Below, in pieces: positions 9,064 through 50,547 of a stretch of 64,000 bases of DNA. A program made the position numbers and the translations under genes. The notes below the pieces were generated by a model that had not been told where the DNA came from, made no database searches, and saw nothing but the letters and a program-made list of their open reading frames with translations. Numbering within the stretch: position 1 is the first letter of the stretch; every line of letters begins with the position of its first letter. The stretch is from an uncultured Nitrososphaerales archaeon (lineage in GTDB: Archaea > Thermoproteota > Nitrososphaeria > Nitrososphaerales > Nitrososphaeraceae): assembly GCA_963713605.1 (NCBI GenBank), contig CAVQMO010000015.1, positions 95,679-159,678 on the forward strand, given 5' to 3'.

Positions 9064-9195
9064 ATGAAATCTAAAACAGAATATCTAACCTTTAATACTC
9101 CAACAAGACGTGCGTATGTTAATATTACTTCCAATTTGAGAAAAATAGTCGAAGAAAGCGGAATAAAGGAAGGACCTTGTTTGGTAAATGGCTAG
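9064..9195 (+). pseudogene. yjbQ: 5' half of host yjbQ (UPF0047) interrupted by an integrated element
   Basis: Translates [42 protein letters not shown] then G-stop; homology to 9456-9875 ends at TTTGGTAAATG. Confidence 0.9.
9180..9190 (+). repeat. attL core TTTGGTAAATG
   Basis: Identical to 50244-50254; coincides with the yjbQ breakpoint. Confidence 0.85.
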
Positions 9196-9455
9196 TTATG
9201 CATCGCTTTACTTGTTTTCCAGCACAAGCAAGTTATCATGACACCAGTTAAAAACAATAGCTCAAGGGCAGGAGTTCAATCCTCTAACTGCGAGGCGTTA
9301 AAAATTAAGATTTATCTCTTGTAATAAATTATGTGCTCAAACGGAGACACAGCATTCATCATGTTAAAAGCAAATTTGTGATTAAATAAGAGATAAATTG
9401 ATTTGAATAAAATTAGGCTAAGATTATAACAGACCTTATCATTGACTTAGACATA

Positions 9456-9875
9456 ATGAAATCCAAAACAGAATATCTAACCTTTAATACTCCTACAAGA
9501 CGCGCATTTGTCAACATCACTCCGAATGTAAGGAGAATAGTTGAAGAAAGTGGAACAAAGGAAGGTTTTTGTTTGGTAGCTGCTATGCATATTACAGCTA
9601 GTGTTTTTATTAATGATAACGAAAGCGGACTGCATCAAGATTTTGATAAATGGTTAGAAAAATTGGCACCCCATGATCCGACAGATCAGTATGAACACAA
9701 TGAAACAGGGGAAGATAACGCTGATGCACACTTAAAACGACAGATAATGGGTCGAGAAGTTGTAGTTGCGATTACAAATGGAAAACTAGATTTTGGCCCG
9801 TGGGAACAAATATTTTACGGAGAATTTGACGGCAGGAGAAATAAAAGAGTGATAGTGAAGGTAATTGGTGAGTAG
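9456..9875 (+). CDS. yjbQ: YjbQ / UPF0047 secondary thiamine-phosphate synthase family protein, element-borne full copy
   Basis: [32 protein letters not shown] motifs; upstream GCTAAGATTATAACA (9417-9431) also precedes the 5' fragment (9024-9038). Confidence 0.93.
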
Positions 9876-10139
9876 AAAACCTAGGACAGACCTTCAGATA
9901 TCTAAGAGTACTGAGTAAACCTAGGTTTGCTTGTCTTGACTGACTTCAAGCCTAGCCTTTCTACTAAATCATCAAGAAATATTGTCGATGTTTGCAGTTA
10001 TTTGGCGAGAGAGAAGATGATCTAAAGCCAGTCAGACATTGACGAAGAAGGGTAGGAGTTATTGGGCCTATGTTGATAGACGAGCTGATTCAACAAAGAA
10101 CAAGAGGAGAGAGTCCCAACAGGTACTTCTATGCTACTA

Positions 10140-10457
10140 CTAATGATTATTGTTTCTCTTCCTTTTTAGTTCTACCAACACTTCATCAAGATATCGTTTG
10201 ATGTCATCATCATCGATCGACGTCCTTATCCCCGTTTTGTCCTCCATGTAGTCCTTCGTCTTTTTGGAGAATCTTAATACCCTCCTCTGTATTTCTTGTT
10301 CCATTTCAGCGGTTCCGATAGCATCCAGAAATTGTTGTGATTCTTTGAATGCTACTTGTCTGATAGTTCGACGCAATCGGGCGTCTTCAGACACAGATAA
10401 TGCAGAGGAATAGATACCCAGATAAAGCAAGTATGATGCTAATCCTACGAAGCACAC
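10140..10457 (-). pseudogene. C-terminal fragment of a multicopy Nitrososphaera membrane protein family
   Basis: Begins abruptly in a TM helix; GIYSSA.SVS.D..LR..I, IGTAEMEQEI, D.K.YL.EVL pattern recalled from this family. Confidence 0.5.
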
Positions 10458-10654
10458 AGTGACAAGACCGAATGGGGGGTTGAAGCATTGAAATTCATTT
10501 CTCCAACCTCAGTCATTTGATATAATCCACGAGTATGATTATATTCAATCCAGTCCATGTCTATGAGAAATTCCACAATACCATTGATAAACCGGTTGTC
10601 ATTATCGAACTCTTCTACTAAACCTTCAACACTTCGACCGTCAACAAGTTTCAC
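10445..10654 (-). CDS. Small winged-helix-like hypothetical protein
   Basis: ...FINGIVEFLIDMDWIEY...YQMTEVG resembles a wHTH wing; similar in plan to 49453-49698. Confidence 0.4.
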   Translation of the reverse strand: MKLVDGRSVEGLVEEFDNDNRFINGIVEFLIDMDWIEYNHTRGLYQMTEVGEMNFNASTPHSVLSLCAS

Positions 10655-11185
10655 TAAAACATGCTTTGCTAATTCTAAAGCAATTGAAGTATTGATCCGA
10701 GTATTATATTCATCTATTGCCTATCATCTTGCCCACCATTGTTATGGTATACAATTCCATCGGATTTAATTATATGATTATTAGTAACACTTAAGACTGC
10801 TGGTGTAAGATTTCAACTAATATCCAATTTACGACATTAATTATAGCATATTGACTCCCATGGTTCATGATAACATGTAAATGGTCATAATCTTAACTTT
10901 TTACTGTCAAAAGACAGTGGTTGATGGGCGGGGCTACCAACTTGATCGCTCATGGGTTGAGATTGGACATTGCCATTTAATAATAAGAAATATTGAATAA
11001 AAGTATTATAAGTGTCGCCAGACCTGGGTTAGACGATAAAATTGTTTTTAAAAAATTTGTTGTAAAAAATGGCAGCAGACTAATACTTGCTGCCGCCAAC
11101 TTTATCGAGGTAATGTACGTTAAAGAGATTCTATTGTCGATGAACTAGATAATATTTATTTATGATAATAATGTCTTGCTCAAAG

Positions 11186-11317
11186 CTAACCATCGGCAAA
11201 ACCAGCATTACGCAATTTTTTGTCTTCTCTTTCGGCACTTCGATGTTCATCAAGAGCTTCAATAGTACTGAAAATGGCGCCACATTCTTCGCATGTCAAA
11301 GGCTCACTCGAACCCAT
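11186..11317 (-). CDS. 43-aa C2H2-like zinc-finger microprotein (not in ORF track)
   Basis: MGSSEPLTCEECGAIFSTIEALDEHRSAEREDKKLRNAGFADG; TTTAAATA box ~25 nt upstream. Confidence 0.7.
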   Translation of the reverse strand: MGSSEPLTCEECGAIFSTIEALDEHRSAEREDKKLRNAGFADG

Positions 11318-11451
11318 ATTCCACTTTTTCAAACATAATATTTAAACACTGACAATCTATTTGCTCAGTTCTTATTGGTCGAAGCAAGCATATGTTTGAT
11401 TATAATTATGATCATTTAGATCTTAAAAAAAGAAAAATAGGGTGGTTTGAG

Positions 11452-12046
11452 TATCAGTGTTCCGAACCCAATATTCCAGAAGCAGATAGTGTTTCGACAA
11501 CTTTCTTCACTATTATTTCTACTATTGCTTCGTCATCTTCTTCATCAATTGTGCTCTTCCCATCGTTACCATCATTCGAACCCAATGTATCGATAGACTC
11601 TTGTCAGTCTTCATTATTATCATTTGAATCTGATGTCTCAAGCGTATCTCCAGTAGTTGTTGTCTCATCATCTTGCTCGTTACTCGAACTCTGTACTCCA
11701 TCTTCATCATTAGATTCTGACGTTCCAACCAAGTCTTCAATGGTGTCAACCTTTTGCTCGTCGTTTGTGCTTTGTCCATCATTTTCTTCATGTCCGTCAG
11801 TTGAATCTGTGTCTTATACTTTGCTGGATGGTGTGTCTTGTCCGACTTCATCATCATTTGATGTCTCAGCATCGTCTTCGTCTATGGCATTATCATCTTG
11901 TTCTTCAGTTGCAGTTTCTCCGTCGCTAACTGGCAGTTGACCTTCTGAGTCGCCATCAATTGTACTGCACTATCATCATCATTATCTGAATTTGAGGTGC
12001 TAGTAGAGTCTTCATCATCTTGGTCTTCCCTTGTATATTTTGCCAT
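11452..12046 (-). pseudogene. Highly acidic low-complexity (D/E/S/T-rich) protein with frameshift and in-frame stops
   Basis: Minus-strand frame reads MAKYTREDQDDEDSTS...DDEEAIVEIIV; the Ser-rich + strand ORF 11392-11940 is its shadow; limits approximate. Confidence 0.55.
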
Positions 12047-12321
12047 TATACCATGAATATTGGAATTAATTTAATAAAAGAACTTCTAATACAAATTTAT
12101 TAATGGCTCATATCAAATGACGGATGTTATCAGACTAAAAGTTAATGCTTCTAAGATATCATATGATAATTAAAACGATATAAAATCACCGAAATAAAAT
12201 ACTCATTCTAAAATTTGATCCATTTTTCATGATAAACATGTTCTAAAAATTTAGAACAATACTGTCATAAGACTCGATCAAAACTTTAAATCTTTCACTT
12301 TAATTTGATATACTATATGCG

Positions 12322-12546
12322 ATGGGACCGGAAGAAAGAGAAAGACAGCTAGACGATCTGAGAAAGGAGATTGGTGGCAGACTTAATCCAGACGACGAGC
12401 AGGTGAAGGCTAGGATGAAAGATCATTATCAGCAGCAATTTAAGCGATTGATGACGCTAAAGCAGCACACGAAAGAGGTGATTCCTCAAATGCGATGTGG
12501 CATGAAAGGCTGGCTAGTGAAGTACATGATATTATCAAATTACTAG
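12322..12546 (+). CDS. Hypothetical protein
   Basis: 74-aa ATG ORF with TTTAAA box about 30 nt upstream. Confidence 0.4.
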   Translation: MGPEERERQLDDLRKEIGGRLNPDDEQVKARMKDHYQQQFKRLMTLKQHTKEVIPQMRCGMKGWLVKYMILSNY

Positions 12547-12652
12547 AATAATCAAGAGTTATTTTTGCGGATTTTATTCAGGGGCTTGAAGGTATATGCT
12601 GTTATTCGATAAGCTTATTATCAAGGACTATTTCATCCACCTGTAGTCATTA

Positions 12653-13255
12653 TTGTCAGGTCTCTTAACCACAGAACGACTAAAGAGCTTTAGTGACTCT
12701 GTTCTTCTTGTCGCCATTACAATACTGGCATATAATCTCGTCCCTCCATCAATTATGAATGGTGAAGTTAATCCAGATGAAATGAAGGATTTTTTTTATA
12801 ACTTATACGGGCTCATAAGTAGCTTCATAGTGATTTCTGTTTTCTGGATTTTTTCCATGTATTTTTTTGACTATCTAAAGTATCCAACTGAAATCATTAC
12901 ACTGATCTTTGTAACCTTTTTTGTATTGATACTGATAACTCCAATTACTACCGTTGGAGAATTACAATATAGAAGGTGGGAAGCGGTAGCGGTCTTGTCA
13001 TTATTACAAGTTTTTAATTCGATGATGTTGATGTTATTATGGTGGCTTTTGGGAAAAAGTAAAAATCTACAAATTAAAGAACTCGACAATGGTACTAAGA
13101 AAAGAATGTACATTAGACTAGCTGTCATTCCATCTCTTTACATCATTTCGATTGGTCTGTCTTTCTTTAATTTTAACGTGGCAGTTATTTTCCCGAAAAA
13201 AAAGATAATGATTATTCGCTACTGTACTACGACTGTACCTACTAAGAATGGATGA
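12653..13255 (+). CDS. TMEM175 (DUF1211) family K+ channel-like membrane protein, C-terminus possibly truncated
   Basis: RLKSFSDSVLLVAITIL signature; SFIVISVFW; five to six TM helices. Confidence 0.8.
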   Translation: MSGLLTTERLKSFSDSVLLVAITILAYNLVPPSIMNGEVNPDEMKDFFYNLYGLISSFIVISVFWIFSMYFFDYLKYPTEIITLIFVTFFVLILITPITTVGELQYRRWEAVAVLSLLQVFNSMMLMLLWWLLGKSKNLQIKELDNGTKKRMYIRLAVIPSLYIISIGLSFFNFNVAVIFPKKKIMIIRYCTTTVPTKNG

Positions 13256-13695
13256 AGTGTGCAGAAGTAGGTATATTTTCCTGGTTCAGTGGGCATTGTT
13301 ATGGGTTTACTTTGTTGATTTGCAGCAACATAACCTGAATCGAATTTACCGTCTGGAGTTGCTGTATCGGGGTTTCCAGAAGTAGCAGTATGAAGTGCAT
13401 TGTCTTTATTATCCCAAATTATTGTGCTACCAGGTGATACAGTTACAGTATCTGGTTCATAACCCCCTCCACTAGTCTTTGCTACTGAGCCTGCTGGCAT
13501 TGCCACGGTAACTTGGCCTCCGCTAGCCCCGGTTGCATTTGTAGCATTTGTAGCATTGGAGCCTTGTGCAAAAGCATGAGATGGACCTATGAAAACGAGT
13601 GATACAATCGCTGCTATGAATATCGCACTACACCCTGACTGCACTAGAGCCCTTTTATTTTTAAGGGTTGGTAATAACATGTCAGCTTGTTTCAT
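13219..13695 (-). CDS. Secreted plastocyanin/cupredoxin-family blue copper protein
   Basis: Signal peptide, WDNKDNALHTATSG and YTYFCTLHPFLVG type 1 Cu motifs. Confidence 0.9.
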   Translation of the reverse strand: MKQADMLLPTLKNKRALVQSGCSAIFIAAIVSLVFIGPSHAFAQGSNATNATNATGASGGQVTVAMPAGSVAKTSGGGYEPDTVTVSPGSTIIWDNKDNALHTATSGNPDTATPDGKFDSGYVAANQQSKPITMPTEPGKYTYFCTLHPFLVGTVVVQ

Positions 13696-14532
13696 TCATG
13701 CAAGTAATAGATATTCCGAAACAATGTTAACTTGTATTAAAAAAGGGAAGGCAGACGACAATGGTAAACATATGAAGCACTATTTTGTTCGTCGTCTGCC
13801 CTGAATTTTAGTATCAGCTTGTATTCATTATACTACTCATTCCTCTAAGTCTGATCCCTTCCTAACTCGGCGAAGGGTAAGAGGTGACTTGTGACCTGTG
13901 AAAATAAACTCATGTCTATCAACCAGGACCTCTATTATTACTATTCCAAGCCCACAGATCTTTTTTTATAATTTATTGTGTAAGTGGCCGCTGAATTACA
14001 GACATTCGCATGGTCTGCGGCGACGACCTGCAGATTTAATGTCCATCTTCCTTCCAGGCCGTCCTACCTTTTCATTATTAGGAGTAACCTAGTTGCATTT
14101 TTCCTAATCTCTGCCAAGTATTAAGTACCGATTGTGAGTATTTTGAGATGCCGTTAATCCCTATCGTGTGACCTTTTTGTGCGCTGGTTCCATCGACGGG
14201 TCACGAGCTGTCCGTGAGCCAACGACGGGCGGCTAGCATTAATGGTTAGGTTTCTTCTCTAGCCCTCCTACCTTGATATAGCCGCATTTCAGAAACCCTA
14301 AACTTCTCCATGTATGGGACAGACTTCTTACATAAGCAATTCTAAAATCCGTTACCATCTGCGAATTCTATGATTGTGTCCTAATGTCAAATGATCGCCT
14401 ACCTATTTTTAGTAGAATAACCAAGTTCCGGAATGTCTCTTAAAATAAAATGTAAAGGAATAGCACGGCAACTTAGTTCTGACAGAACCAAACAACCTGC
14501 ACAAGGTTAGGGCAGCGGCGGCTAAAACGCTC

Positions 14533-14694
14533 ATGAGATTAGACAAATTCTCTGGTCGCCGTACCTTCTTACTAATACTGATTGCGAAAGAAATTGACAG
14601 AGGGTATGAAAAGATATTGGCAAGAAGGAAGAGGAAAAAGTTTAAGATAGTAGAATTCTGGAACGGTAAAGCGGTAACACTACACCTTCCGTAA
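14533..14694 (+). CDS. Possible 53-aa basic protein (not in ORF track)
   Basis: MRLDKFSGRR...ARRKRKKFKIVEFWNGKAVTLHLP, followed directly by a T-rich tract. Confidence 0.3.
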   Translation: MRLDKFSGRRTFLLILIAKEIDRGYEKILARRKRKKFKIVEFWNGKAVTLHLP

Positions 14695-15229
14695 CCTTTT
14701 TTTCCTCTTTCTGTTTTACACCTAACCCCCGTACGCCTCCTTGGGTAGTTCTCTTATCTCTCAGAGATATAATCTCTCTATCTTGCGTATTCAATCAGTA
14801 CACAGCCACAAATAACTGAAGAATTAAAGAATATCTCTAACATTATTGCAGAAAGTAAGGTCACAAGATGATAAATCATAACGATAGAGTTATTCATTCG
14901 TAAACCTATTGGGAATAAAGAGCTGATGATGAAGGGAGATTGAACGCTTAATTAGTAAATAATTAGTAGGATGCGAGGAACACTGACTGTTACTATTTGT
15001 ATACATTCATACTATATTAAGACATAAATCTATTATCAAATCAATTGTGGAAGATTAACTCCTTTCCAACCTTGATCGTAAATACCTTGGTAATGTTTTG
15101 TCAGTACGTATTATGACAGTATTATTACCATTAATCATTTTTGATTGAATCGAGATTCTCAAATATGGAAGCATATGATAAAACTGTTGATTCGCTATTT
15201 TAGTATGTGTCATCTAGTCCTGCGGTAAT

Positions 15230-15420
15230 TCAGTTGTAATTCAAATGTGATTTCACAGTTTTAATCAGGTCATCCATACCTATTGGTTTTCTAATAAAGC
15301 ATTCTCCTTCCTGTAAATCTGGAAATATTCTTTTGAACTCGTTGTAGTATTCTTCATAGGCAGTCATAAAACATATCTTGGTTTTATCACCAATTTGTCT
15401 GATCTTTCCATATTCCTTGG
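15230..15420 (-). pseudogene. C-terminal fragment of a response-regulator receiver domain
   Basis: KIRQIGDKTKICFMTAYE...CFIRKPIGMDDLIKTV; N-terminal half absent. Confidence 0.7.
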
Positions 15421-15864
15421 ACCTTTTAAAAACATTGGATCCCTTCAAATTCGATATTATCTGACAACTGTAATCGCATTTTAGTTGTTCCAAGTTGTGA
15501 TATGCCACGTCATGAGAAATGTTATCGTAACAGCACAATAATGTCGATATGACAATATCTTTAGTGTGGAATGCTTCTGAGATCTGCCACAGCAAATAAG
15601 AATAGATAATTAAAGAAGAGGTAGGTTGGTGTGTTGTAGGGTCTGAGATATTATGGAAACCACACACCACACTAACCCAACCGAATATGCGTTGATTTCA
15701 ATATTTGCATACTCAACTTAATTATTAACGATAAAGATTGAATATGGACGACTTCAGTTAATAATGGCGCGGCATTAGTATTCAATCCGTTATCGAATTA
15801 TTGCGATTAGACCCTCAGAAATTTCATTCTTTCTATTACAACCGGTCGACAATACAACCAGAAA

Positions 15865-16197
15865 ATGATGAAGAACCAGCTATTGGTCGAAGCTGAGAAG
15901 CTTTATGAAAGGGTGCTTGAAAACATCACAAATAACGTAGTTAGTGATAATATATTGTCCACGTCATCAGTTGTGCAAAAAGAATCGGAAGAACAGAATT
16001 CGGATGATAAGCGAACGTCGTCAGCTTACTCATTTGTCAAAGAAGAGCGTACTTTGTTAGATCCTGAAGACAGAGAGATAGAAAGAAATTCGTTCGTAGA
16101 ACGTCCTGACGTACTAGCACTGGTCATGGAATGGTATTTTATCCATACAAAGGACAAGCATGGCATCCTAATTTTGATGCCCCAGTCTAAAACCTGA
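15865..16197 (+). CDS. Hypothetical protein
   Basis: 110-aa ORF, no recognised motif. Confidence 0.4.
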   Translation: MMKNQLLVEAEKLYERVLENITNNVVSDNILSTSSVVQKESEEQNSDDKRTSSAYSFVKEERTLLDPEDREIERNSFVERPDVLALVMEWYFIHTKDKHGILILMPQSKT

Positions 16198-16296
16198 ATT
16201 CAGATCTGCTCTCTTGTGGAACGCTGTATATTAGGTGTCGTTATATTCCTGTAGCATTAACTTACATAATATATAACATATACACGACTATACACT

Positions 16297-16878
16297 ATGT
16301 ATATATTAGTAATAGCAACATTGCTGCTTCTACCAATAGGAAATGTCCTAGCTAGTTCTGATTCTGACTTTACAGGAGAGAATTTCAAAGCATACAAACC
16401 TGATAGACCAGCTATAAACGAAGATTTTCATCCTGATAGAAGCTGCATGTTTGATGCATATCAGCTAAAATGTATTCCAGGTGCAGAACAAGATTGTCAT
16501 GAAGCAGGTTTTGGCAATAATGATGATTCAACTTGCTTCCCATATGAGGTCATTATTGGTGGATGTTCTGACGGCTATCATAGTACAGATGATGATGAAA
16601 CTGGTCAATGCTATCCTAACGAAGAGGGATGTCTGAATGATTACATTTTGCTAACAGGTAGGCCTGACAAAGGCGACCGATGTGCTGAAATGAATTACGA
16701 ATGCAATTCTGAGTCTCTGCAACGTTTTTCTTGCAGTCCAGAATTCAAGATAAATTGCGAAGATAACCAGAAACATTATCTGTGTAATGGACAAAGAGGT
16801 ATTAATGGTACTATCTACTGCGATTTGCTTCCACATAATGTGACGAGCATGTGTTTGAATAAAGACCTGGTAAAATAG
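16297..16878 (+). CDS. Secreted Cys-rich protein
   Basis: Signal peptide; SCMFD..QLKC, CFP, C.DGYH..DDDETGQC shared with 47832-49184. Confidence 0.75.
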   Translation: MYILVIATLLLLPIGNVLASSDSDFTGENFKAYKPDRPAINEDFHPDRSCMFDAYQLKCIPGAEQDCHEAGFGNNDDSTCFPYEVIIGGCSDGYHSTDDDETGQCYPNEEGCLNDYILLTGRPDKGDRCAEMNYECNSESLQRFSCSPEFKINCEDNQKHYLCNGQRGINGTIYCDLLPHNVTSMCLNKDLVK

Positions 16879-17312
16879 ATTGATAAAAATCTCTTTTTTT
16901 AACTTCTTTATGTGGCTCAAATTAATGTGGGAGGAGGGGGCACTAGTAAACTCCTCATTATTAGGTTGATCTGCACAGCAACTCCAATTTCCATTATATT
17001 TATGTATCCCGTCTTCCTGAAGGACACTATCCAAATTTATTACTATTAAATTTCTCGGCGACTTTGGCATCTCTTTAGGCCATGCTAACATACATACATA
17101 ATTTCATCAAAAATATCCTAGTGTGAAATTTGTTGTTTGTCTATACCCCCTATTTCGCCGGGCTTGTTGATACACATTCTTAGTGATATGGTAGCAAGGG
17201 AGAACTTGGTTTGTTCTTAATTATTTACTGGGGATATCCAGTACTTTACCTCATATGATTCAATGTCTGAGCCAAGGAAAATTTAATACAGTACCAATTT
17301 CGACTGTAATTA

Positions 17313-24721: not shown

Positions 24722-24765
24722 GAGCCCAAAATTTATGTCAAAAGTGGTTCACATACCCTTGGGCC
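24722..24765 (+). repeat. 44-bp direct repeat, copy 1, with internal inverted ends GCCCAA/TTGGGC
   Basis: 42/44 identical to 26334-26377. Confidence 0.9.
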
Positions 24766-24891: not shown

Positions 24892-26175
24892 TTAGAACCC
24901 GTATTTGTAACTTCTTGAAGTCATATTACCAATAGTGGGAGAAACAAAGGAATGTGAAAGACCTGAATGTGATTCAAGCCATGCATAAAGATCTGCTAAA
25001 ACATAAGGTTCAATTGGTCCAATTTCAGTGAACCACTGAGGTGAGGGATAGAAGAGGTGTCCCAAATTAGGATAAGTTATCAACATGTGGTCAGGGTGAT
25101 TTACGTCAGTTAGCCTTTGTTGTAGGAGAAATGCTTGCTGAACTGTAGTTTGACTATCATTTTCTCCATTGAGTATTAGGATGTCTGTAAAGTTAGAGAT
25201 ATTGCCAATGATGCTTAAAGTGGGTATCAGATTAAGCTCCCATCTTAACCATACAGGACAGCCTCTAATATTGTTGCATTTGGACAGATTAAAAGCCGTC
25301 TGATTTTCATAATACTTTATCAATTCAGGTCTGATTTGTTTCTGAATACTTACATCATCAGTAGTACCAAATTTCTCGACTAGGCTGTCAGTTATAGCCT
25401 TGGTATTATTAGAATCCAAAAGGGAAGATGATACCAAATAAAACCCTAACAAAGGATCCTTTGCTATTTGCTGTATCGATATCATTCCGGTGTGATTTTT
25501 ATCCAGAACTTGCGTAGCGTACTCTAATGGGTGATCTACCACTTGGTAGCGCAGGATATCTCCGACAAGGTTCTGGGCTGGAGCGCCCATAAGTATTAAA
25601 TTCTTCACCTTGGTTGAATTATCTATTGCTAACCTCGGAGCAATAATTGTACCTTCACTATGACCAATTACACTTATCCTTTGAGGATCTACTTCAGGTT
25701 GTACTGCTAGAATATTCAAAGCATTCCCTGCATCATGAATTAGATCATCGACTGTAGCATTTCCCCATACATTCTGATCAGTTATGTGGTTTGCACCTAC
25801 GCCTCTCTTATCATATCTGAGTACTGCAAAACCTCTTTCTGATAGATATTGAGTGATTTGCCAATACGGTTTAGGAACATCATTGTGAACATCTGATCCC
25901 GTAGTTTCATTCTTATTAAGAGCACCAGAACCATGAATGAGCAGCACAGCAGGAAATGGTCCATTTCCCTCTGCGGGAAGTGTTAATTGAGCATTGGTCT
26001 TTACTCCATTTCCTAAATCTATTATGAGATCTCTATATTTTATTGTTGGAATGTATTGTTGAGCTAGCGCATGGTCTTGTTGTTTAAAAAAAGTAGTAGA
26101 CAAACAAGATAATCCAAGCGTACCTATCAAAAATAATCCCAAAGTTAGGTTCACACATGTTGTACAATAGCACAA
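24892..26175 (-). CDS. Secreted alpha/beta hydrolase (serine aminopeptidase S33-like)
   Basis: LIHGSG, RYDKRG, GHSEG nucleophile, GEND, YPNLGHLF. Confidence 0.9.
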   Translation of the reverse strand: MCYCTTCVNLTLGLFLIGTLGLSCLSTTFFKQQDHALAQQYIPTIKYRDLIIDLGNGVKTNAQLTLPAEGNGPFPAVLLIHGSGALNKNETTGSDVHNDVPKPYWQITQYLSERGFAVLRYDKRGVGANHITDQNVWGNATVDDLIHDAGNALNILAVQPEVDPQRISVIGHSEGTIIAPRLAIDNSTKVKNLILMGAPAQNLVGDILRYQVVDHPLEYATQVLDKNHTGMISIQQIAKDPLLGFYLVSSSLLDSNNTKAITDSLVEKFGTTDDVSIQKQIRPELIKYYENQTAFNLSKCNNIRGCPVWLRWELNLIPTLSIIGNISNFTDILILNGENDSQTTVQQAFLLQQRLTDVNHPDHMLITYPNLGHLFYPSPQWFTEIGPIEPYVLADLYAWLESHSGLSHSFVSPTIGNMTSRSYKYGF

Positions 26176-26333: not shown

Positions 26334-26377
26334 GAGCCCAAAATTTAAGTCAAAAATGGTTCACATACCCTTGGGCC
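26334..26377 (+). repeat. 44-bp direct repeat, copy 2
   Basis: GAGCCCAAAATTTAAGTCAAAAATGGTTCACATACCCTTGGGCC. Confidence 0.9.
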
Positions 26378-26956
26378 ATTAGAGATCTAAAACTATCATT
26401 CTTACAAATTGATTCAACTTTTCGAGTCTATCGTAATGGGCAAAGATGGAAAACATGATTATTATGTAGGAATAGACATCGTATAGTAGTATAAACCAAG
26501 AATTAAGACTAAGACTTTAGCATGCCCTATTAAGTGAACTGTATTTTGGTGTATATTTCTTCTTCTCTTAAAGCATTCTTAATCATGAGTTACTAGTGAG
26601 TCGTTAACTCTGGTAGTGTTCACATTCATTATCTCTTCTTTAATCATTCATATTATGCATGTAAGAGAACATCCAACGAGACCCCGGACCAGCGGATATC
26701 AAATTTTATGGTTTAGAAAGACAAGATATGTCACTGGGAAAGAGAAATCAAAGCTGACATAGAATGGAGATAACTTGACTAGCCTAATATTCGCAAAAGT
26801 GAAGTCAAAATTATAACCATCTTTTTTATTGGGCAAGTAGCAGACAGCTGCATCAAATGTATTCAATGTAATCATTTTTATGTTTTAGTTTCATTCTAAT
26901 TTATTAAGACCAACCAGCAGCTGTAAGTCAAACGCGGAAAAGCTGGGGTAGATGAG

Positions 26957-27385
26957 ATGGATAATATTCAAGAATTAACATATAATCATAGTAATAATAA
27001 ATTTGCAACAGAAAAGAAAACAATAATGATATGTGAAGATGAACCAGACGTGCTATTATCATTTGAGCTGGTACTCAAGTCAATGTATAACATTATTCCA
27101 GTTAGTTCTGGTAAAGATTGTATAATTAAGTACAAAGAAGAAAATAACCGGGGAAATAAAATAAATCTCATACTATTAGATTACAGATTGGGTGATATGT
27201 TTGGCGACTCTGTTGCTCGTACAATAAAACAGTATAACGAAACTAGAATTATTCTAATCTCAGCATTTGATCTAGATCATGCATTGTTGAAAGAATTAGA
27301 AGATGGAGATTACATAGCAAAATACGTGGAAAAACCGATTTATGCTAATCGACTTATAGATCTAGTATCTGATACGATAAGCTAA
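26957..27385 (+). CDS. Standalone response-regulator receiver protein
   Basis: ICEDEPD, LLDYRL, ISAF, EKP; close paralog of 47389-47802. Confidence 0.9.
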   Translation: MDNIQELTYNHSNNKFATEKKTIMICEDEPDVLLSFELVLKSMYNIIPVSSGKDCIIKYKEENNRGNKINLILLDYRLGDMFGDSVARTIKQYNETRIILISAFDLDHALLKELEDGDYIAKYVEKPIYANRLIDLVSDTIS

Positions 27386-39220: not shown

Positions 39221-39460
39221 CTAGTTATTTTCTCCGTCCCCGCCTTCTCCATCACCGTCGTCGCTTCCATCACCGTCGTCGCTTCCATCGTCACCTGTGG
39301 TTCCAGCCGCCGGCATAGTCATGTTTCCACCAGTCATGTTTCCACCAGTCATGTTTCCACCAGTCATATTTGACTGTGCATAAATAGTGGATGCAAGTCC
39401 AGTCACCAATACCGACGCAACGATTGCTACGCCGATGGCTACCAATATTTGACTTATCAT
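39221..39460 (-). CDS. Small secreted protein with NMTGG repeats and acidic tail
   Basis: Signal peptide; 15-bp tandem repeats encoding NMT four times; DDGSDDG repeats. Confidence 0.8.
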   Translation of the reverse strand: MISQILVAIGVAIVASVLVTGLASTIYAQSNMTGGNMTGGNMTGGNMTMPAAGTTGDDGSDDGDGSDDGDGEGGDGENN

Positions 39461-41758: not shown

Positions 41759-42985
41759 TTGTCTCATAGTAAGAATTACGATAATAATAAAAACAATGAT
41801 TCAAATCTAGTTGAAAATCTAAACGAAATACTATCTGTTGAAAATGCATCAATAGATAGAATAATATCAAGAATAGATCAGACATCACTACAAGAACTAA
41901 ATCATAGACTAAAGCAACATTTAGAAGAAACGTACCTACAAAAAAATAGGCTTCAGAAAATAATTACAGAATTAGGAGGAAAGCCAACTTACGCAAAAGC
42001 AGATTTATCAAGGTTAGCCCCGCCTGCTACGATTATTATGAAAAAGAGATCTATAACGACCGCTGAGTCAAAAAAAGAGGATAACGTCCGAGACAATTCT
42101 ATGCTAGAAGAAGAAGAAGAAGAATTAGTACGAATCAAGCAAGACCGCCTAATAGAATTTAATGAACTGGAAGGTTATGAATCTCTAATACAGACAGTGC
42201 AAACGATGGATATGCCGCAAAAACATGAGATTACACTCTTATTAGAACAGAGTGTGCAAGAAGAAGAATCAATGGCATATTGGTACAAAATACATTAACC
42301 CTTGGTGATTGACAAATTATGGCCAAAGATGATCCATGCTTCAATAAGACGTGGCCAAAAGTTTCTTCTTAACCACGTTAGTTCCAAGATTCCGCTCATA
42401 ATTATATACGCAGATCTGGTCGGCTCTACTACTATGAGTATGACTTTATCCATAGATAAACTTGTGGATATAATTAGAGTATTTGCACACGAAATATCGC
42501 ATGTAGTGGATAGTTATGGTGGATATGTCTTAAAATATGCAGGCGACGCAGTAATCTCATTTTTTCCGGGTGGTGTCGACAACAAAGACAAATATCTTGC
42601 TTCAGACACGTCGGTAGAATGTGGCAAATCGATGATTGATGTAATCAGTGAGACTAATGGGATATTCAATAAAAAATTTGGCTATCCAGAACTATTTACC
42701 AAGATAGGTATAGACGTAGGAGAAAATACAATTGTTCAGTACGGCTACGACCAAGAGTCGCCTATTGATATACTGGGATATAGTATGAATATAGCATCAA
42801 AGATAACTTCTCTAACTGGCGCGAACAAAATAGCTATCGGAGAGAATGTATACAAGTCATTAGACCATAAAACACAGGGAGAATTTCATGAGTTATCCAT
42901 GTCCGATAACAGATGGAAGTATATTAACTATGGGACTGATAGTCCTTACAAAGTCTACACGCTGAATACCTCAATAGGGAATTGA
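41759..42985 (+). CDS. DUF892 ferritin-like domain + class III adenylate cyclase in one frame, separated by a single TAA (42296-42298)
   Basis: LNEILSVENA..., HLEET..QK.RL; YADLVGST, KYAGDAV, IGIDVG, DILG..MNIASK. Confidence 0.8.
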
Positions 42986-43329
42986 CTGTGCATCGCACTG
43001 TTGGAATAAACACGACCACTAATGCAACCTATCTATCTCTAATTGTATATTATGATTAAATCTTGAATTGTACAACAGATAATCGTTAGTTCACACACAA
43101 ACAGCCAGCGACATCTGGATTTTCCTCACTTTTGCGAGTCGCAAATCATTTTAAACTATATTAGACTGGCAGCTTTCGAGAGTGGGCAGCCCAGTCCATA
43201 GGCGGTTTTGCAAAGTCAGGTAAATGATCCATATTTCTTTATCTTTGTCACGCATATTTTATGTACATAACCATCGCCAAACGATTAGAGCTTGACAACA
43301 AGAAAAACCATAGTAGTGATATAGTATAA

Positions 43330-43560
43330 TCAGAGATTCTTTGGAGGCTCATAGTTGCATAGAGCAAGCCTAAATGCATCAAGTATATCATCATGCGATG
43401 TTTGTTGTTTGTCCAGCTTCCATTCGTCTGATACCACTGCAGTACGTAGAGACACTACTAGCTTCTGCAATGTTGGATGGATCTTAATTAACCTCTTAGA
43501 CATCAATGTATAAGTCCATTGCAACATCCGTCTATGTCTCTTCTGAAAGTTAACAAATTT
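43330..43560 (-). pseudogene. C-terminal remnant of a terminase large subunit-like protein
   Basis: VNF...H..ML, IHP...KL..SLRTAV, LDK..TSHDDILDAFRLAL; recalled family similarity. Confidence 0.55.
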
Positions 43561-43792
43561 TCTAACAAAAGATGAATTGATGAGGTTCGACAGTTGTATG
43601 TCCACAATATGGACAGAACTTTGCATCATCTTGCGTCGGGAACACCTTTATCAATTGAAATCTTGATCGACAGGTTCTACATACATAGGTGGTTGCACTT
43701 AACATCTAGTACATTACTATACAGAACAATTTATTACGAATTCCCAATCTGCCATTCCTTTCAATGACTCAGACTCTTTCGGTAGGTAGGGC

Positions 43793-44227
43793 ATGGTTGT
43801 CATAACAACCTCAGATTACATTCAAATTATTGCAGCCGGGATATATGCAGCAGCATTATTCTACACTGTCATAACGTTTAGGCGTTCGAAGAAACTAGAT
43901 CAAATCACACAGACGAACATAATCACGTCTTCTTGGAGAGATGCAGAGGTTGAGTTAGATAAAATACCCCCTGGTTCTGAATATGACATCTCTCGAAAGC
44001 AATGGGTTTATCGTATCTTCAATGATATTGAATGGCTTTGCTTCTTAATCAATGAAAAGTTCATTAGCGATAGGAAAATCCTAAAGCAATTCGAACCAAC
44101 TTTAATTGACTACTACGAAAATACGTTTCTGAAGTATGTGTCAAAAGATGAAAAGGATTTTAAGCGCTATCCTGAATTCACTAAATTATATCAAGCAATC
44201 AAACAACAGAAATCAAGTCAGAAATAG
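43793..44227 (+). CDS. Membrane-anchored hypothetical protein (DUF4760-like)
   Basis: N-terminal TM helix, FNDIEWLCFLIN, YPEF.KLY. Confidence 0.6.
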   Translation: MVVITTSDYIQIIAAGIYAAALFYTVITFRRSKKLDQITQTNIITSSWRDAEVELDKIPPGSEYDISRKQWVYRIFNDIEWLCFLINEKFISDRKILKQFEPTLIDYYENTFLKYVSKDEKDFKRYPEFTKLYQAIKQQKSSQK

Positions 44228-44330
44228 TACTAATAATAGGAAAGGTTTAACCCGGCCTACCTACGATTGGCCCAATTTGTATCGTTTCGACTATATAGTA
44301 ACTAATTGACAAGCTGGCAATCTTATAATT

Positions 44331-45188
44331 TTATTGACGTATAAACCCTTTCTTTTCCATGTAACTCTCTCGTGCCCACCGTTCTAGTTCCCTGTCAGAT
44401 AGTTCGTTCCTCGCTTTGAAGATAGATTCTGCATCTTTTCCTACGGGATTCCTTAACTCTGGGTTAGGTGAAATCGTCGCATTTAGGATTGTGTGAGCCA
44501 CTTTGGAAGGATGAGAAGAGTAAGCACTAATTGACTCAAATCCTTGAAAGACTCGTTGCACCATATTGGCATACGGAGATTTGTTTGGATCAAAGCCTTT
44601 GGCAGTCTTCATATTATCCATAAAGTTACTACCGATAAATCCTGGTTCAATTAATATGACATTTATACCAAAGTCAGCTATTTCTTGTCTTAGGGATTCT
44701 GTGAACCCTTCTATGGCAAACTTGCTCGCATGGTATGCGGTGGTAAATGGGAACAATCCTACTGTGCCACCAACAGAACTTATGTTTACTATTGTGCCAT
44801 TACCCTGTTTTCTCATTGTTGGTATTACTGCTTTAGTGGTTCTCATTACACCGAAAACATTTGTTTCAAACTGCTGCTTTATCTCCTCAAGGCTTGATTC
44901 TTCAAGAGAGCCAAATAGGTCATAGCCCGCATTGTTGACTAGAACGTCTATCCTATCATTTTCTTTTACAATATTTTCGATAGCATCATCTACCGACGAA
45001 TCACTGTTTACATCTAATTGAGTAACATTAAGGGAGATATTTTCCTTTAATGCAATTTCTCGTAGTCTATCACTCTTGTCTATATTTCGCATAGTTGCAT
45101 ATGTTATAAATTGATTTCTCGCTAACAGTAGAGATGTTTCATAACCTATTCCACTCGAACTGCCTGTCACGACAGCCACCTTTGTCAT
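44331..45188 (-). CDS. Short-chain dehydrogenase/reductase
   Basis: TGSSSGIG, NNAG, YHASK; likely start MTKVAVV. Confidence 0.92.
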   Translation of the reverse strand: MTKVAVVTGSSSGIGYETSLLLARNQFITYATMRNIDKSDRLREIALKENISLNVTQLDVNSDSSVDDAIENIVKENDRIDVLVNNAGYDLFGSLEESSLEEIKQQFETNVFGVMRTTKAVIPTMRKQGNGTIVNISSVGGTVGLFPFTTAYHASKFAIEGFTESLRQEIADFGINVILIEPGFIGSNFMDNMKTAKGFDPNKSPYANMVQRVFQGFESISAYSSHPSKVAHTILNATISPNPELRNPVGKDAESIFKARNELSDRELERWARESYMEKKGFIRQ

Positions 45189-45273
45189 GTTTATATTGTG
45201 ACATCGCATTATATGAGCATAGCGACAAGCAAATCGACTAAACAAAGATATAGTATCTTTATTAAATCAAACT

Positions 45274-46037
45274 ATGGCTAATGTAAATCAGGCAGAGTTT
45301 GAAGGTAAAGTCGCCATTGTCACTGGCGCCGCTAGCGGTATCGGACGTGCTACAGTGACCCTTCTCAACTCCCGTGGTGCTTCGGTTGTCGCCGAAGATA
45401 TCAAGCCAGAAGTCGATGAACTTACACGCGGCAACGAACGAATTGCACCAATTATTGGTGATGTGTCTAGCGAGGAGACAGCAAAACGCGCAGTCGCTCT
45501 GGCAATCGAGCGCTTTGGCAAGGTCGACATTCTAGTAAATAATGCCGCAACTATCATCTACAAACCCGTGGTCGATATGACGATAGAAGACTGGGACTCT
45601 ATCATGGCAGTCAATGTACGAGGATGGTTCCTCCACTCCCGGGAAGCGCTCCGTGCTATGATCCCTAACCATAGTGGGTCAATTGTAAATGTTGGTTCGT
45701 TACGCCTGCTTCTATACATTTCCGCAAATCGCAGCCTATGCGGCCTCCAAAGGGGCCATTGCACAGCTGACCAGAACTTTAGCAGTTGAGAATATCTCCC
45801 ATGGCATTCGTGTCAATGCGGTTGGATCCGGTGATGTCGTAACAGATCTCCTCAACAAGATTAATCCAGATGGACGCAAATTCCTGAGTGAACATGGCAA
45901 ACGCGCTCCTATTGGGCGTGCAGCCCAGCCAGAAGAAATTGCTGAAGTCATACGCTTTCCTCGCATCAGACAGGGCAAGCTTCATTGTTGGCTCTATTTT
46001 GATGGCTGATGGTGGCTATAGTGTAATAATCCAATAG
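45274..46037 (+). pseudogene. Short-chain dehydrogenase/reductase with two frameshifts (~45700, ~45958)
   Basis: TGAASGIG, NNAA, YAASK, PIGR, ADGG across three frames; visibly GC-richer than flanks. Confidence 0.85.
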
Positions 46038-46468
46038 CACGGGCCATATCTACTAGTATGGTATCTAGATATCATTTATAGAAACTGCATAGAAATGTGA
46101 TATATTCTTCGTATCCTTACCCTATGACAGAAGGGTATTCTGATAAGAGCTATATACACGGAGGTGCATTCGATCACAATCAATAAATAAAATATAACTA
46201 TGCGTGTAGCACGTATGCATGAATTTAGAAATCTGCTTGTGACTCATCCCGAATTTGCGGCATTCAACCACACGCCTTTCTTTCGGGTTAGAAAACATAT
46301 TTATCAATAGCATATAGTAGTATGTTCTTAAGTATGCTATATGGATAGACTAGCATATAGATAGATTAGAATTCCAATTACTATGCTATAGATAACCAAC
46401 AAAATCGCGCTATACACTCTCCCTCTGCTTCGCGTACTTTACCGATTATATCGCAAATTGGCCAGTCA

Positions 46469-46681
46469 TTGGTCATGCATAAACTCATTGAGCTTCAAAA
46501 GATTGTAGATGAAAAAATCGGAACGCTCAAAGAAGAAGTAGAAATCGGAACAAATGTGAAACTGAATATGTTATACATAGATGACCGGCGGGATGAAATA
46601 CAATTTCTCCAATGGAGTACAAGAATCATACAATCAATACTTGTTGATTGTACCTTGGATGACTATTCAAACACGAAGTGA
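46469..46681 (+). CDS. Hypothetical protein
   Basis: 70-aa helical ORF. Confidence 0.4.
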   Translation: MVMHKLIELQKIVDEKIGTLKEEVEIGTNVKLNMLYIDDRRDEIQFLQWSTRIIQSILVDCTLDDYSNTK

Positions 46682-46706
46682 TTTTTAAAGTGGCAACTTC
46701 TTTAGT

Positions 46707-47117
46707 ATGAAGTGCTGCTATTCTTTACAAGGAAGAGAAGACATGTGGAACAGTGGATCAAGCTATGAATCCTATATAGGCAGGTGGAGTAGGCTTGTTG
46801 CACACCAGTTTGTACCCTGGCTTAATATTTCAGCTGGCTCCCATTGGTTGGACGTTGGATGTGGAACGGGAAACCTGAGCCAAACGATCCTTGATATGGC
46901 AGATCCGCACACGGTGCTTGGAATTGACTCTTCAGAAGAATATATTGAATTTGCTCGCAAGCAGATCAATGACCCTCGTGTAACATTTCGCCTTGGAGAT
47001 GCGCAAGTACTTCCATTTGAGTCTGCTTCATTTGATGCAGCTGTCTCCGGACTAGCGCTCAATTTTGTTCCTCAACCAAATCCAGCGCTAAGGGAGATGA
47101 TAAGAGTGTACGTGTAG
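46707..47117 (+). pseudogene. Class I SAM-dependent methyltransferase, 3' truncated
   Basis: YESYIGRWSR, LDVGCGTG, GDAQVLPF, REMIRV then ends. Confidence 0.8.
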
Positions 47118-47388
47118 GTGGAACTACATAAAATACATTACAAAATAACAGGTGGATTCAGTATGTAACAGTGAATGTTAAGACGATAACAGCTGATAAC
47201 AGACAGTAAAAGCTATCTAGTGCTAATTGCCAATAAAATATATTGCAAGCGGTATTAAACAAACCAGAGAAAGAGAAGTCAGTGATTAGACTTCATCAAG
47301 AGGGCACGACACCCACAGCAGATGCCCTCATCTTCACTTTCAGGTTTTTGTTGCTACCGGAATGAATACGTGGAAAACTTGCAAGTAA

Positions 47389-47802
47389 TTATTCTCTTAC
47401 GATTTCATCTATTAGATTAGTTAAGCTATCTGTCTCGATTGGTTTTAGTATGTATTTTGATATGTAATTACCACTTTCTAATTCTTTTACCAGTACACCA
47501 TCTATATTGAATGCTGAGATGAGAATTATTTTGGTTTCGCCGCATTTTTTTATCTTGCGAGCAACAGAATCACCCATTATGTCACACAATCTATAATCTA
47601 ATAGTATAAGATGTATCTTATTACCCCGGTTTATTTCTTCGATGTACCTCGCAATACACTCTTCACCAGATTCTACCATTATTATGTTATATTTCGACTT
47701 GAGCATTAGCTCAAATGATAAAAGCACATCTGGTTCATCTTCACAAATCATTACTGTTTTCTTTTCTGTTACAAATTTATTATTATTCTGAATATTATCC
47801 AT
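47389..47802 (-). CDS. Standalone response-regulator receiver protein
   Basis: ICEDEPD, LLDYRL, ISAF, LKP. Confidence 0.9.
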   Translation of the reverse strand: MDNIQNNNKFVTEKKTVMICEDEPDVLLSFELMLKSKYNIIMVESGEECIARYIEEINRGNKIHLILLDYRLCDIMGDSVARKIKKCGETKIILISAFNIDGVLVKELESGNYISKYILKPIETDSLTNLIDEIVRE

Positions 47803-47831
47803 CTCGTTTACTCACCCCGGCTTTTCCGTGT

Positions 47832-49184
47832 TCAACTTACAGCTGCTGGTTGGATTGCTTGTGTGTGCTGTGTTGCTGTCTGCGTCTGTGCCGGTGGCGC
47901 TACTATATTGCTATTTGCTACCGTTTCGCAAATCAGCTTCGTATTTCCAACTTGCATACAACCAGAAACAAAGCCATCATAGTATGCTTTGTCTGCAGAC
48001 GTATAAAGTCCACATGCTTGATATCTTACTGGATTAAACTTTTGTTGTATTCCATCTGCACTGCCATTAAGCTTACAGTTTGATACATCGGCTGCATTGG
48101 TATTTGCATTTGCATTTGCATTTGCAGTTGCAGTTGCGCTCTGAATTACTGTTGTTTTGTGAATAACTCTGGTCTTATCATTGTCATCATCTTTCTTCTC
48201 ACAAGTCATATAGAATGGCACATCAACATCACATTTTTGTTTCTGTTCACAGTTATCACCCCCATTTGCCATTACTGTCATGACATAGCCCTGACTACAT
48301 GGTATATTATTTCGAATACATTCACCGCTTTCGTCATCTTCATGTCCATGATAGCCATCCGGACATTCTGAGTGCTCGGGGAAACATCTGCCATCTTCAT
48401 TCATACCATATCCATCCTGACATTTGCCATCTATTGTTGCACATTTTGGTAGTTCCGTATTAAATAGACAATCATTATCTGGTGGTTCTCTTGATACTGG
48501 TTCTGGTAGTTCACATTCATGTGCAGTACTTCCAGCTGGACAGACATCTTCATACGGTGTTATACAATCTTGAAAGCTTCCGTCACATGTCGGAAGTAGT
48601 TTATCTGTTGGGGGACAATCTTCATCTACCGATACAGTTGCTCCATCTGGACATGTAAGGGTCTCTGGTTCCGGACATGCTTCGTTAACTGATACAACAG
48701 ATCCATCTTGACATGTTTGGAGTGTTCTTGTGTTGCTGTCTGGTACTGATGGACATTCTGCTTGTGTTGCAGCAGATGACCCGTCTGAGCATGTAACAAA
48801 AGTTGATACTGGTTCTGGTGGACATTCTGCTTGTGTTGCAGCAGATGACCCGTCTGAGCATGTAACAAGCGCTTCACTCTGCTCACATAATTCTTCTGTC
48901 CCCACAAGTGATCCATCTTCACATTCAACTAGTCCATCATCATTGTCGTTATTATCATCATCATTCTCATTGTCATCATCATCTTCTATTTCTCCCGGTC
49001 TGCCAGCGTTTTCCCAATCTTCTTGTGCTTGTTCTTCTTGCTCTTCTGGGCTTCCCTCATAATCACCCTCTGTCCAACCATCATCTTCTGTTGTTGGCGA
49101 CGCGTATATTGATGGTTGATTTGATGTTATCATTATTATTAATGCCAGTGCCAAGCTAACCGTCGTAAGTTTAATTATACTCAT
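47832..49184 (-). CDS. Secreted acidic Cys-rich repeat protein
   Basis: Signal peptide, acidic N-terminus, five C-x-D-G repeats, CPDGYH..EDDESGEC domain. Confidence 0.85.
   Translation of the reverse strand: MSIIKLTTVSLALALIIMITSNQPSIYASPTTEDDGWTEGDYEGSPEEQEEQAQEDWENAGRPGEIEDDDDNENDDDNNDNDDGLVECEDGSLVGTEELCEQSEALVTCSDGSSAATQAECPPEPVSTFVTCSDGSSAATQAECPSVPDSNTRTLQTCQDGSVVSVNEACPEPETLTCPDGATVSVDEDCPPTDKLLPTCDGSFQDCITPYEDVCPAGSTAHECELPEPVSREPPDNDCLFNTELPKCATIDGKCQDGYGMNEDGRCFPEHSECPDGYHGHEDDESGECIRNNIPCSQGYVMTVMANGGDNCEQKQKCDVDVPFYMTCEKKDDDNDKTRVIHKTTVIQSATATANANANANTNAADVSNCKLNGSADGIQQKFNPVRYQACGLYTSADKAYYDGFVSGCMQVGNTKLICETVANSNIVAPPAQTQTATQHTQAIQPAAVS
48750..48868. repeat. Intragenic duplication: 50 identical bp with 69-bp period (VTCSDGSSAATQAECP twice)
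   Basis: 48750-48799 equals 48819-48868. Confidence 0.9.
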
Positions 49185-49452
49185 TTCTTGTCCGCTACCA
49201 ACTGTTTAGAAGTGTATTCGTAATCATTGACATTAATATCCACTAATACCCATTACGGGGGTTACTTAATAAAATAGAATGATTACATTGAATACATTTG
49301 ATGCAGCTGCTCGTTACTTGCCCAATAAAAAAGATAGAGTCATAACTTTGACTTCACTTTTGCGAATATTTAACTGTGTTAAAATGGTTGCCTCCATTCC
49401 ACATTAGAACGCTATTAGAACGAAATAGCTGATCATCTAGTAAGTCTGTAAC

Positions 49453-49698
49453 TTAACGATCTGAATCAAACTTTTGAAGATAATTTTTACCATCTGGTGT
49501 TATAACTAGCTCGTTGAAATTATTTGTAACTATATAATGTATTTGCTTCAAAGCATCAATCCAAGTTTCTACTAGTACCGTATCTCCATCAAATCTTTCC
49601 GCGATCTGTTCTTCATTCTTCCCCTCAGAGAGAGATCTAAGTACGTAACCTAATGTTTGGCTCTCAGTTAGGCCGCGAATGTACGAGTTTTTACGCAT
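49453..49698 (-). CDS. Small winged-helix-like protein
   Basis: EEQIAERFDGD..LV..WIDALK...ITPDGKNYL. Confidence 0.6.
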   Translation of the reverse strand: MRKNSYIRGLTESQTLGYVLRSLSEGKNEEQIAERFDGDTVLVETWIDALKQIHYIVTNNFNELVITPDGKNYLQKFDSDR

Positions 49699-49981
49699 TT
49701 AGTTCATCACCCCTAGTTGCTTTATCGTTTACGACTACTAGATAACAAAGTAAATAATGGTTAACTGATTTTCTACCAAAAATTCATATTAAGACTATCC
49801 TATTAAAAATTATACCATTGTGTCATATTTTATATCAATTACTTCAATATTTTAATCAAGTCATCCGAAATCCAATCAAAATCCGCTAATTACTTCAAAA
49901 TATTGTTCAGAAACTATTATATATGTTACTACCAAAGTACGTATTAAGTAATACTAGCTTGGATGATAAGACAGAGCAAAT

Positions 49982-50206
49982 TCAAGTTATTGTCAACAAC
50001 AGAAAGTACATAAAGGGTTTATTGTTATGGAAACGCGATAATTTGTTTAACGAATTTCGGATGATATCTCTGTAATTAACACTTGGGTTAATTTCAGTCT
50101 GCATTGCATCAAAATAGTCGCTAATTATCATATCATTGGTTTTTGTTTTTATTGGAGTGCATATTGTTGGTGTTTCTGCATTTATGAATACAGGGATCAT
50201 TAACAT
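49982..50206 (-). pseudogene. Possible N-terminal remnant of a tyrosine integrase
   Basis: ISDYFDAMQTEINPSVNYR..I...L.KLSRFHNNKPF resembles recalled N-termini of Nitrososphaera integrases; starts 38 bp inside attR. Confidence 0.55.
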
Positions 50207-50243
50207 AATGTATTAATAAAACGTTGCATCGCTGCGCATTATA

Positions 50244-50547
50244 TTTGGTAAATGCAATGCATATTACAGCTAGTGTTTTTATAAATGATAACGAAAGTGG
50301 ACTGCATCAGGATTTTGATAAATGGCTAGAAAGGTTGGCACCTCACGCTCCTACGGATCAGTATAAACATAATGAAACAGGAGAAGATAATGCAGATGCG
50401 CATCTAAAACGACAAATAATGGGTCGCGAGGTTGTAGTTGCCATCACAAATGGAAAATTAGATTTTGGTCCATGGGAGCAAATATTCTACGGAGAATTTG
50501 ACGGCCGGAGAAACAAGAGAGTATTAGTAAAGGTAATTGGTGAATAG
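50244..50547 (+). pseudogene. yjbQ: attR core (50244-50254) plus 3' half of host yjbQ
   Basis: [17 protein letters not shown]...VKVIGE; homology to 9456-9875 begins at the core. Confidence 0.92.

Follow-up and report, generated by a model that had tools for sequence, protein, structure and literature searches.

Among the 68 integrated elements of thaumarchaea surveyed by Krupovic et al. (2019, PMC6563490; available part of the paper), 39 occupy tRNA genes, 15 intergenic DNA and 14 protein-coding genes, the last being hit in their 3'-distal region, with the reading frame restored in the worked example. The cryptic elements of that survey have att sites of at least 8 bp (median 17 bp) and sizes between 2.6 and 98 kb. 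Here, we analyse a stretch of 64,000 nucleotides (the window) from an uncultured Nitrososphaerales archaeon, in which an island lies between the two halves of the gene yjbQ. The window comprises positions 95679 to 159678 of contig C15 in an assembly (G000) of 4.09 Mb, 15 contigs and 87% completeness; C1, C3 and C12 are further contigs of this assembly, and G-numbers denote other genomes, of which G235 is unpublished. YjbQ/UPF0047 is missing from the supplements of the survey and from its named targets, where three 'hypothetical' target genes are not identifiable. A first-pass annotation of the window had noted that archaeal elements usually target tRNA genes and had inferred a protein-coding target here; such targets are already known for 14 of the 68 elements.

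The island resembles the thaumarchaeal cryptic integrated elements in its short att sites, a tyrosine integrase at the end (here a stub), the lack of virus and conjugation genes, and a cargo with e.g., receiver domains and cupredoxins. Unlike those described in the available part of PMC6563490, it cuts its target at codons 40-43 of 139 and carries a whole second copy of the gene. Similar to the cis-mobilizable elements (CIMEs), its integration genes are lost and attL and attR are kept; CIMEs, however, are described in bacteria, where tyrosine-integrase elements are said not to disrupt their target (Guedon et al. 2017, PMC5704250, available part). yjbQ itself is named as an island insertion site in Vibrio cholerae (bioRxiv 10.1101/2024.07.25.605194, available part). 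We found no paper on an archaeal yjbQ target, none of the papers on yjbQ and integrases being archaeal, and none on serine integrases and yjbQ; the supplements of PMC10083194 gave 0 matches. New in the present case is the mid-gene yjbQ target of an archaeal tyrosine-integrase island that carries a spare gene. Protein-gene targets as such are already known, and so is the general kind of element, of which this copy is defective.

Split yjbQ and the ends of the island

The split of yjbQ is confirmed. The 5' half (9064-9190, plus strand, ATG at 9064) holds codons 1-42 and the first base of codon 43 and reaches a stop at 9193-9195, one codon past the core (…CLVNG, then stop). The 3' half (50244-50547, plus strand, Pfam UPF0047) covers codons 40-139. 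As the first-pass annotation had stated, both halves end on exact copies of an 11-bp core, TTTGGTAAATG, at 9180-9190 and 50244-50254, with 41,064 bp between them and an extension of 0 bases on both sides. Its second statement, that deletion of the interval gives a 139-aa frame, is likewise borne out: the gene rejoined in silico has 139 codons without internal stop, and 128 of 139 residues are identical to intact YjbQ. Pro38 is the only clear sign of decay, the relatives seen having Leu, Phe or Ile at this position. By itself the 11-mer is weak evidence for integration. It occurs exactly twice in the window and six times in the 4.09-Mb assembly, and with at most one mismatch there are 6 matches, compared to 2.4 expected. 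What goes beyond chance is that both gene halves end on the core and that the core is framed by inverted repeats, namely the two arms outside the gene.

The left junction, attL (9178-9190, plus strand), consists of an 8-bp central spacer (9178-9185) and the shared core. The left end of the element (9186-9252, plus strand) starts with a 25-bp arm (9186-9210) and is similar to other left ends until about 9250. On the other side, a 25-bp right arm (50217-50241, plus strand) precedes attR (50242-50254, plus strand), whose spacer (50242-50249) has one mismatch to that of attL. A copy of attR on C1 has no such mismatch. The direct repeat at both ends, a feature shared with the thaumarchaeal cryptic elements, measures 11 bp, and 13 bp with the C1 copy. 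When the arms on the element side are joined by script, an imperfect palindrome of 58 bp results, in which two 25-bp arms enclose the 8-bp spacer and 17 of 25 positions pair. Among random controls, 5 of 200,000 genomic positions and 2 of 200,000 chimeric joins attained this pairing; the scan covered about 140 centres, the best of which was the core. The symmetry centre lies in codon 40 of yjbQ and not at the core end. The same right arm is located directly upstream of full integrase genes in C1, G227 and G235, and homology to these elements stops 3 bp short of the core. The attL and attR arms of the window are thus best assigned to one element type. A third, exact match of the arm motif at 61024-61036 was treated as chance, since it is coding sequence conserved in the G227 and G233 orthologues; the gene around it is weakly GCS2-like.

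Upstream of the 5' half the DNA is of the native type that is common to G225, G227, G228 and G229. An unsplit yjbQ follows thyX or thyX intergenic DNA in G225, G229 and G227, and is found 2.1 kb further on in G234. The native downstream flank of the 3' half (50548-50612, plus strand) matches the DNA behind yjbQ for 27 bp in G225, 50 bp in G234 and 65 bp in G227:C588. As this flank is shared with relatives and missing behind the second yjbQ copy inside the island, the 3' half of the window is the native one. An empty site is thus seen in four genomes in the form of an unsplit yjbQ at the thyX locus, with a right flank that is common for 27-65 bp only. The first-pass annotation had proposed a thyX-yjbQ-ArsR arrangement as empty site. 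It was not found in 13 relatives. Its thyX-yjbQ part is conserved, and so are the 27-65 bp past the stop; the ArsR gene and a flavoprotein gene are located on other contigs there, and therefore the complete arrangement does not exist in relatives. In the window, thyX (6639-8306, plus strand, Pfam Thy1) marks the native locus as host gene. It is one 555-aa frame with two Thy1 domains.

The recombinase family

A 55-codon N-terminal stub of a tyrosine recombinase (50012-50176, minus strand) points from the right end into the element and matches residues 9-63 of a 404-aa homologue at 62% (E 1e-15). The truncation lies 230 bp inside attR: homology to the copy on C1 stops at 50010, and the stub ends in unique sequence. 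There is no other integrase, serine recombinase or resolvase in the window. Since the integrase is reduced to this stub, the element is not autonomous now. The integrative element proposed in the first-pass annotation holds as far as site-specific insertion is concerned, in view of the palindrome, the arm-adjacent integrase and the recurrence described below; a presently autonomous element it is not. A split integrase of the suicidal SSV type was not found, as no integrase piece is located at attL. The att site lies outside the integrase gene: in G227 the arm comes before the start codon, and in the window the frame of the stub has a stop ahead of it.

As the gene of the window is a stub, the catalytic signature and the fold were examined on homologues. 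The family gave 185 relatives, from which 80 loci were kept and 52 full-length homologues aligned. R153, K183, Y274, R277, W299 and Y309 are invariant in all 52, with the spacing Y274-x-x-R277, and a double zinc ribbon is located at the C-terminus. The predicted structure of a homologue (pLDDT 85) matches Cre, XerA and lambda Int in a fold search (best E 6e-8); PF00589 scored below the Pfam cut-off, and the family profile gave 0 matches among PDB sequences. By alignment and predicted fold, the homologues are tyrosine recombinases with an active site of the pNOB8 type. This is in agreement with the available description of the pNOB8-type (class II) integrases (Badel et al. 2021, PMC8371274), which share the R…YxxR…Y signature and a gene that is not split on integration. 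Their att sites, in contrast, measure 40-50 bp and lie mostly in tRNA genes, whereas we find a core of 11-13 bp, a double zinc ribbon and no tRNA gene by ARAGORN, which intron-bearing tRNAs may escape, in 60 of 60 loci (of the 80).

All integrase homologues come from records titled Nitrososphaeraceae, Nitrososphaerales or Thermoproteota. This fits an archaeon of Nitrososphaeraceae type and, with it, the first-pass guess of an ammonia-oxidising archaeon. Within the assembly, 37 matches to the family profile were counted, mostly broken, and several have arm variants upstream. This suggests a transposon-like expansion.

Recurrence of the junction and the spare gene

Patterns for the left end and the right arm were scanned in 238 genomes of the family, and a metagenome scan was added for left ends. 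The left-end pattern occurs in four of the 238 genomes, all within the genus, at five places, and the metagenome contig L099 adds a sixth. Three of these six left ends interrupt yjbQ at the identical base, i.e., those of the window, of G228:C621 and of L099. The first-pass annotation had suggested scanning family genomes for yjbQ split at the same position, and G228:C621 with its identical left junction is such a case. It had further regarded yjbQ as the target of the element; yjbQ is indeed hit, but as three of the six left ends found it is not a dedicated target. Of the others, two coincide with the stop codon of a different gene (G228:C163, G236), and that of G227:C228 lies elsewhere. All six are complementary to the right arm of the window at 17-19 of 25 positions, while their spacers differ. 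Where copies of the second target are unoccupied (G225, G233), their junction reads GTAAAT, like that of yjbQ. The right-arm pattern was found in 3 of 238 genomes; the arms of G227 and G235 end upstream of a uspA gene, and C12 carries the empty site of this gene. The unsplit yjbQ of G225 is closer to that of G228 (95.7%) than the window gene is (88.8%). This suggests at least two insertions, or a precise loss.

The left-end motif gave 0 matches in viral contigs. Ten further short-frame or doubtful yjbQ matches from outside the genus, besides which there are 58 weaker ones, do not show this junction; they represent frameshifts, contig ends, or a small insertion in G045. In the latter (L237:4940-6015), about 0.8 kb of unrelated DNA interrupts yjbQ at codons 45-46. 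Two contigs stop 1-2 bases past the core position of yjbQ (L236, the end of G186:C267, and L081, the end of G235:C60). Such ends would be expected from an assembly fork between occupied and empty alleles; one of them is in another genus. In G226 (L251), a degenerate left arm lies near locus position 1858, about 20 bp past the stop codon of the second target gene. Two matches from a phage collection, H4 and H5, were considered as split yjbQ and rejected, both being unsplit distant yjbQ genes.

Inside the island, an intact second yjbQ (9456-9875, plus strand) has an altered core (Asn42 to Ala) and its own upstream type. NCBIfam names its product secondary thiamine-phosphate synthase YjbQ, a predicted function. 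It is 86% identical to the rejoined allele at the DNA level; of the codons that differ, 43 do so synonymously and 11 non-synonymously. All three split loci have a second yjbQ inside attL, at distances of 265, 446 and 1146 bp and after unrelated spacer DNA; these inner copies have two upstream types, and the core is altered in all of them. The G234 gene has 200 bp of upstream DNA in common with the G228 inner copy, yet its downstream flank is native. This would be expected if such an element had collapsed by recombination between the inner copy and the native 3' half.

A comparable break is found outside the archaea. On the viral contig L233, a serine recombinase of 540 aa is encoded together with an intact yjbQ; a 5' half of yjbQ is also present and loses homology at the break base of the window, after Asn42. 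Break base and spare yjbQ are the same as in the window, while enzyme class, domain of life and arms differ. The shared position looks convergent, because no homologue of the L233 enzyme occurs in 14 genomes of the genus, and the convergence looks most simply explained by these codons being the most conserved DNA in yjbQ. The contig is prophage-like; at L233:3326-6103, two serine recombinases flank the intact yjbQ and the 5' half on the opposite strand.

Residue 42 differs between copies within and outside the genus. Outside the genus, 61 of 63 copies have Asn and two have Ser (23 loci and 40 copies chosen across genera). Among ten unsplit copies within it, six have Asp, one Ala and three Asn; this count includes L099 and the partial G235 copy and excludes the second 3' copy of G225, a decayed paralogue with Asn. 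Tentatively, the LVNAMH codons of yjbQ might be a cross-domain integration hotspot, arrived at independently by an archaeal tyrosine-recombinase and a bacterial serine-integrase family which both carry a spare gene, and the unsplit alleles of the genus might have escaped by changing the near-invariant Asn42 codon in the half-site (Asp/Ala in 7 of 10 versus 0 of 63). We regard this as doubtful. Escape from the integrase stays a hypothesis, because the relatives are not independent, the change of Asn42 may have one origin, and the exact half-site is also missing in 26 of the 63 outside copies. If true, it would amount to an arms race over an att site in coding DNA and would speak for selection against the loss of YjbQ.

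Origin and extent of the island

Probably, the element's own tyrosine recombinase inserted it in yjbQ at codons 40-43, and the element later decayed to a non-autonomous island. A circular element would have entered at these codons, with the 58-bp imperfect palindrome just upstream of the integrase gene as attP, and strand exchange within the spacer would have split yjbQ and duplicated the core. Since the same ends occur at differing targets, the enzyme may be one of relaxed specificity, whose targets share GTAAAT beside a variable spacer and for which yjbQ is a favoured site. The cut lies mid-gene and neither arm restores the frame; for this reason, persisting elements would carry a whole second yjbQ just inside attL, which may rescue the function and, as its core no longer matches, may be immune to the enzyme. 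The integrase would then have lost everything after codon 55, and accessory genes would have come to fill the interval. Both att ends are kept, and excision would be achieved only by an integrase acting in trans. Such a history would add a mid-gene, gene-disrupting target and a whole-gene replacement to the known thaumarchaeal mobilome. It would also allow the attP of an abundant integrase family of the Nitrososphaeraceae to be reconstructed, a family without tRNA linkage that may be a driving force behind the large accessory genomes found in soil ammonia oxidisers. The recurrence of a spare copy would indicate, indirectly, that YjbQ, which is poorly understood, is of importance to the host.

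The interval contains an accessory patchwork (9900-49400, no strand assigned) of phosphate transporter pieces, patatin, NADH-dehydrogenase-like protein, hydrolase, ion channels, two response regulators, cupredoxin and short-chain dehydrogenase-like SDR genes. Many genes of the window are frameshifted, and therefore indels may be sequencing errors. The Pfam scan took in 68 of the 89 listed open reading frames (ORFs) and gave no replication, transfer, virion or other mobility family, and no conjugation or casposase gene. Relaxase and type IV secretion genes, as in integrative conjugative elements, were found neither here nor in the 18 scanned ORFs of C1:1-20000. The longest interior match in any of the 13 relatives is about 1.8 kb, and the matches are scattered over contigs. 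The first-pass annotation had named an interval of syntenic core genome among the findings that would refute its reading; by this comparison the interior is not syntenic core genome. It is consistent, by analogy, with a decayed element that keeps its att sites, like a CIME (PMC5704250, available part).

Several observations weigh against insertion by the element's own recombinase. The attR-yjbQ junction is known in a single type, which comes from this assembly only (the arm occurs in three of 238 genomes, once at yjbQ), and neither an attP nor an attB junction was observed. The 5' halves of G228 and L099 are 99.1% identical and may go back to one event, and the inner copy of G228 is visible only to codon 70, where the contig ends. 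None of the 13 relatives has a full empty site linking both flanks. No intact integrase is located anywhere in the window, and the full-length copy on C1 is frameshifted. Synteny is lacking in the right flank just as in the interior, and the GC content is the same inside and outside (37.3% in the interior).

The 41 kb may also be a composite in which the junctions are real scars, the interval consists of stacked or recombined islands or of strain haplotypes joined by the assembler, and attL pairs with a right end of the C1 type. We consider this unlikely, though it has to be reckoned with. C1:1-1014 repeats 50010-51033 at 96.8%, with 13 substitutions, 8 of which are in the element end and 0 in the yjbQ half; a full-length, frameshifted integrase stands behind this attR copy, and C1 has no yjbQ 5' half. 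Three paths lead into one ArsR segment (from C15, C1 and the end of C3), several other contigs are 97-99% duplicates, and numerous near-copies of interior pieces occur in other parts of the genome. Strain variants were probably present in the sample. As C1 gives an alternative right end, the 41-kb extent is not secured, and the first-pass annotation, drawing on one contig, overstated it. On the other hand, attL and attR of the window fit as one palindrome, and the size is within the published 2.6-98 kb. Moreover, the stub runs out into unique sequence, and 0.4 kb deeper inside lies an ORF of the element type, oriented as it is on C1. This 81-aa ORF (49453-49698, minus strand) is 81% identical over 174 nt to C1:9033-9206, where its relative adjoins a PriX-like ORF. 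The C1 copy, as a second sequence of the same form, supports attR as a real junction.

Two further explanations dispense with the tyrosine recombinase, and both are very improbable. yjbQ fragments and paralogues are common in the genus, and G225 has a decayed 3' copy without the arm, which would suit a yjbQ that simply duplicated and decayed within a variable region, with the 11-mer as microhomology at the breakpoint. However, this leaves the palindrome, the arm-adjacent integrase, the arm on other targets and the G228/L099 junction unexplained and is largely refuted. Alternatively, the split could be the scar of a since lost large serine integrase of the bacterial yjbQ-targeting kind, with the tyrosine recombinase as a bystander. 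Long inverted arms are typical of serine attP sites, and the L233 element combines a serine recombinase and an intact yjbQ with a 5' half that ends at the identical base, both junctions reading AATGGC. Against such a scar, no large serine recombinase is found beside the yjbQ junction of the window, the genome has no PF07508 match and one unlinked resolvase on C1, and the 14 genus genomes hold no relative of the L233 enzyme. Furthermore, the position of the symmetry centre in codon 40 is at odds with it, and the arm travels with tyrosine recombinases to other targets.

Some minor features of C1 and of the interior are added here. C1:1-17000 (L072) carries attR, the integrase, pentapeptide-repeat, TMEM175 and PriX-like ORFs and then core genes, with no matching attL. 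In the window, a 44-bp direct repeat (24722-24765 and 26334-26377, 95%) surrounds the hydrolase gene at 24892-26175; it is cassette-like and has near-copies elsewhere in the genome. The response-regulator genes at 26786-27381 and at 47396-47853 plus 49267-49370 are an inverted pair with upstream DNA in common, the second copy being interrupted by a 450-aa low-complexity ORF. Short perfect tandem repeats with units of 18 and 15 nt are located at 39248-39371, within a multicopy element.

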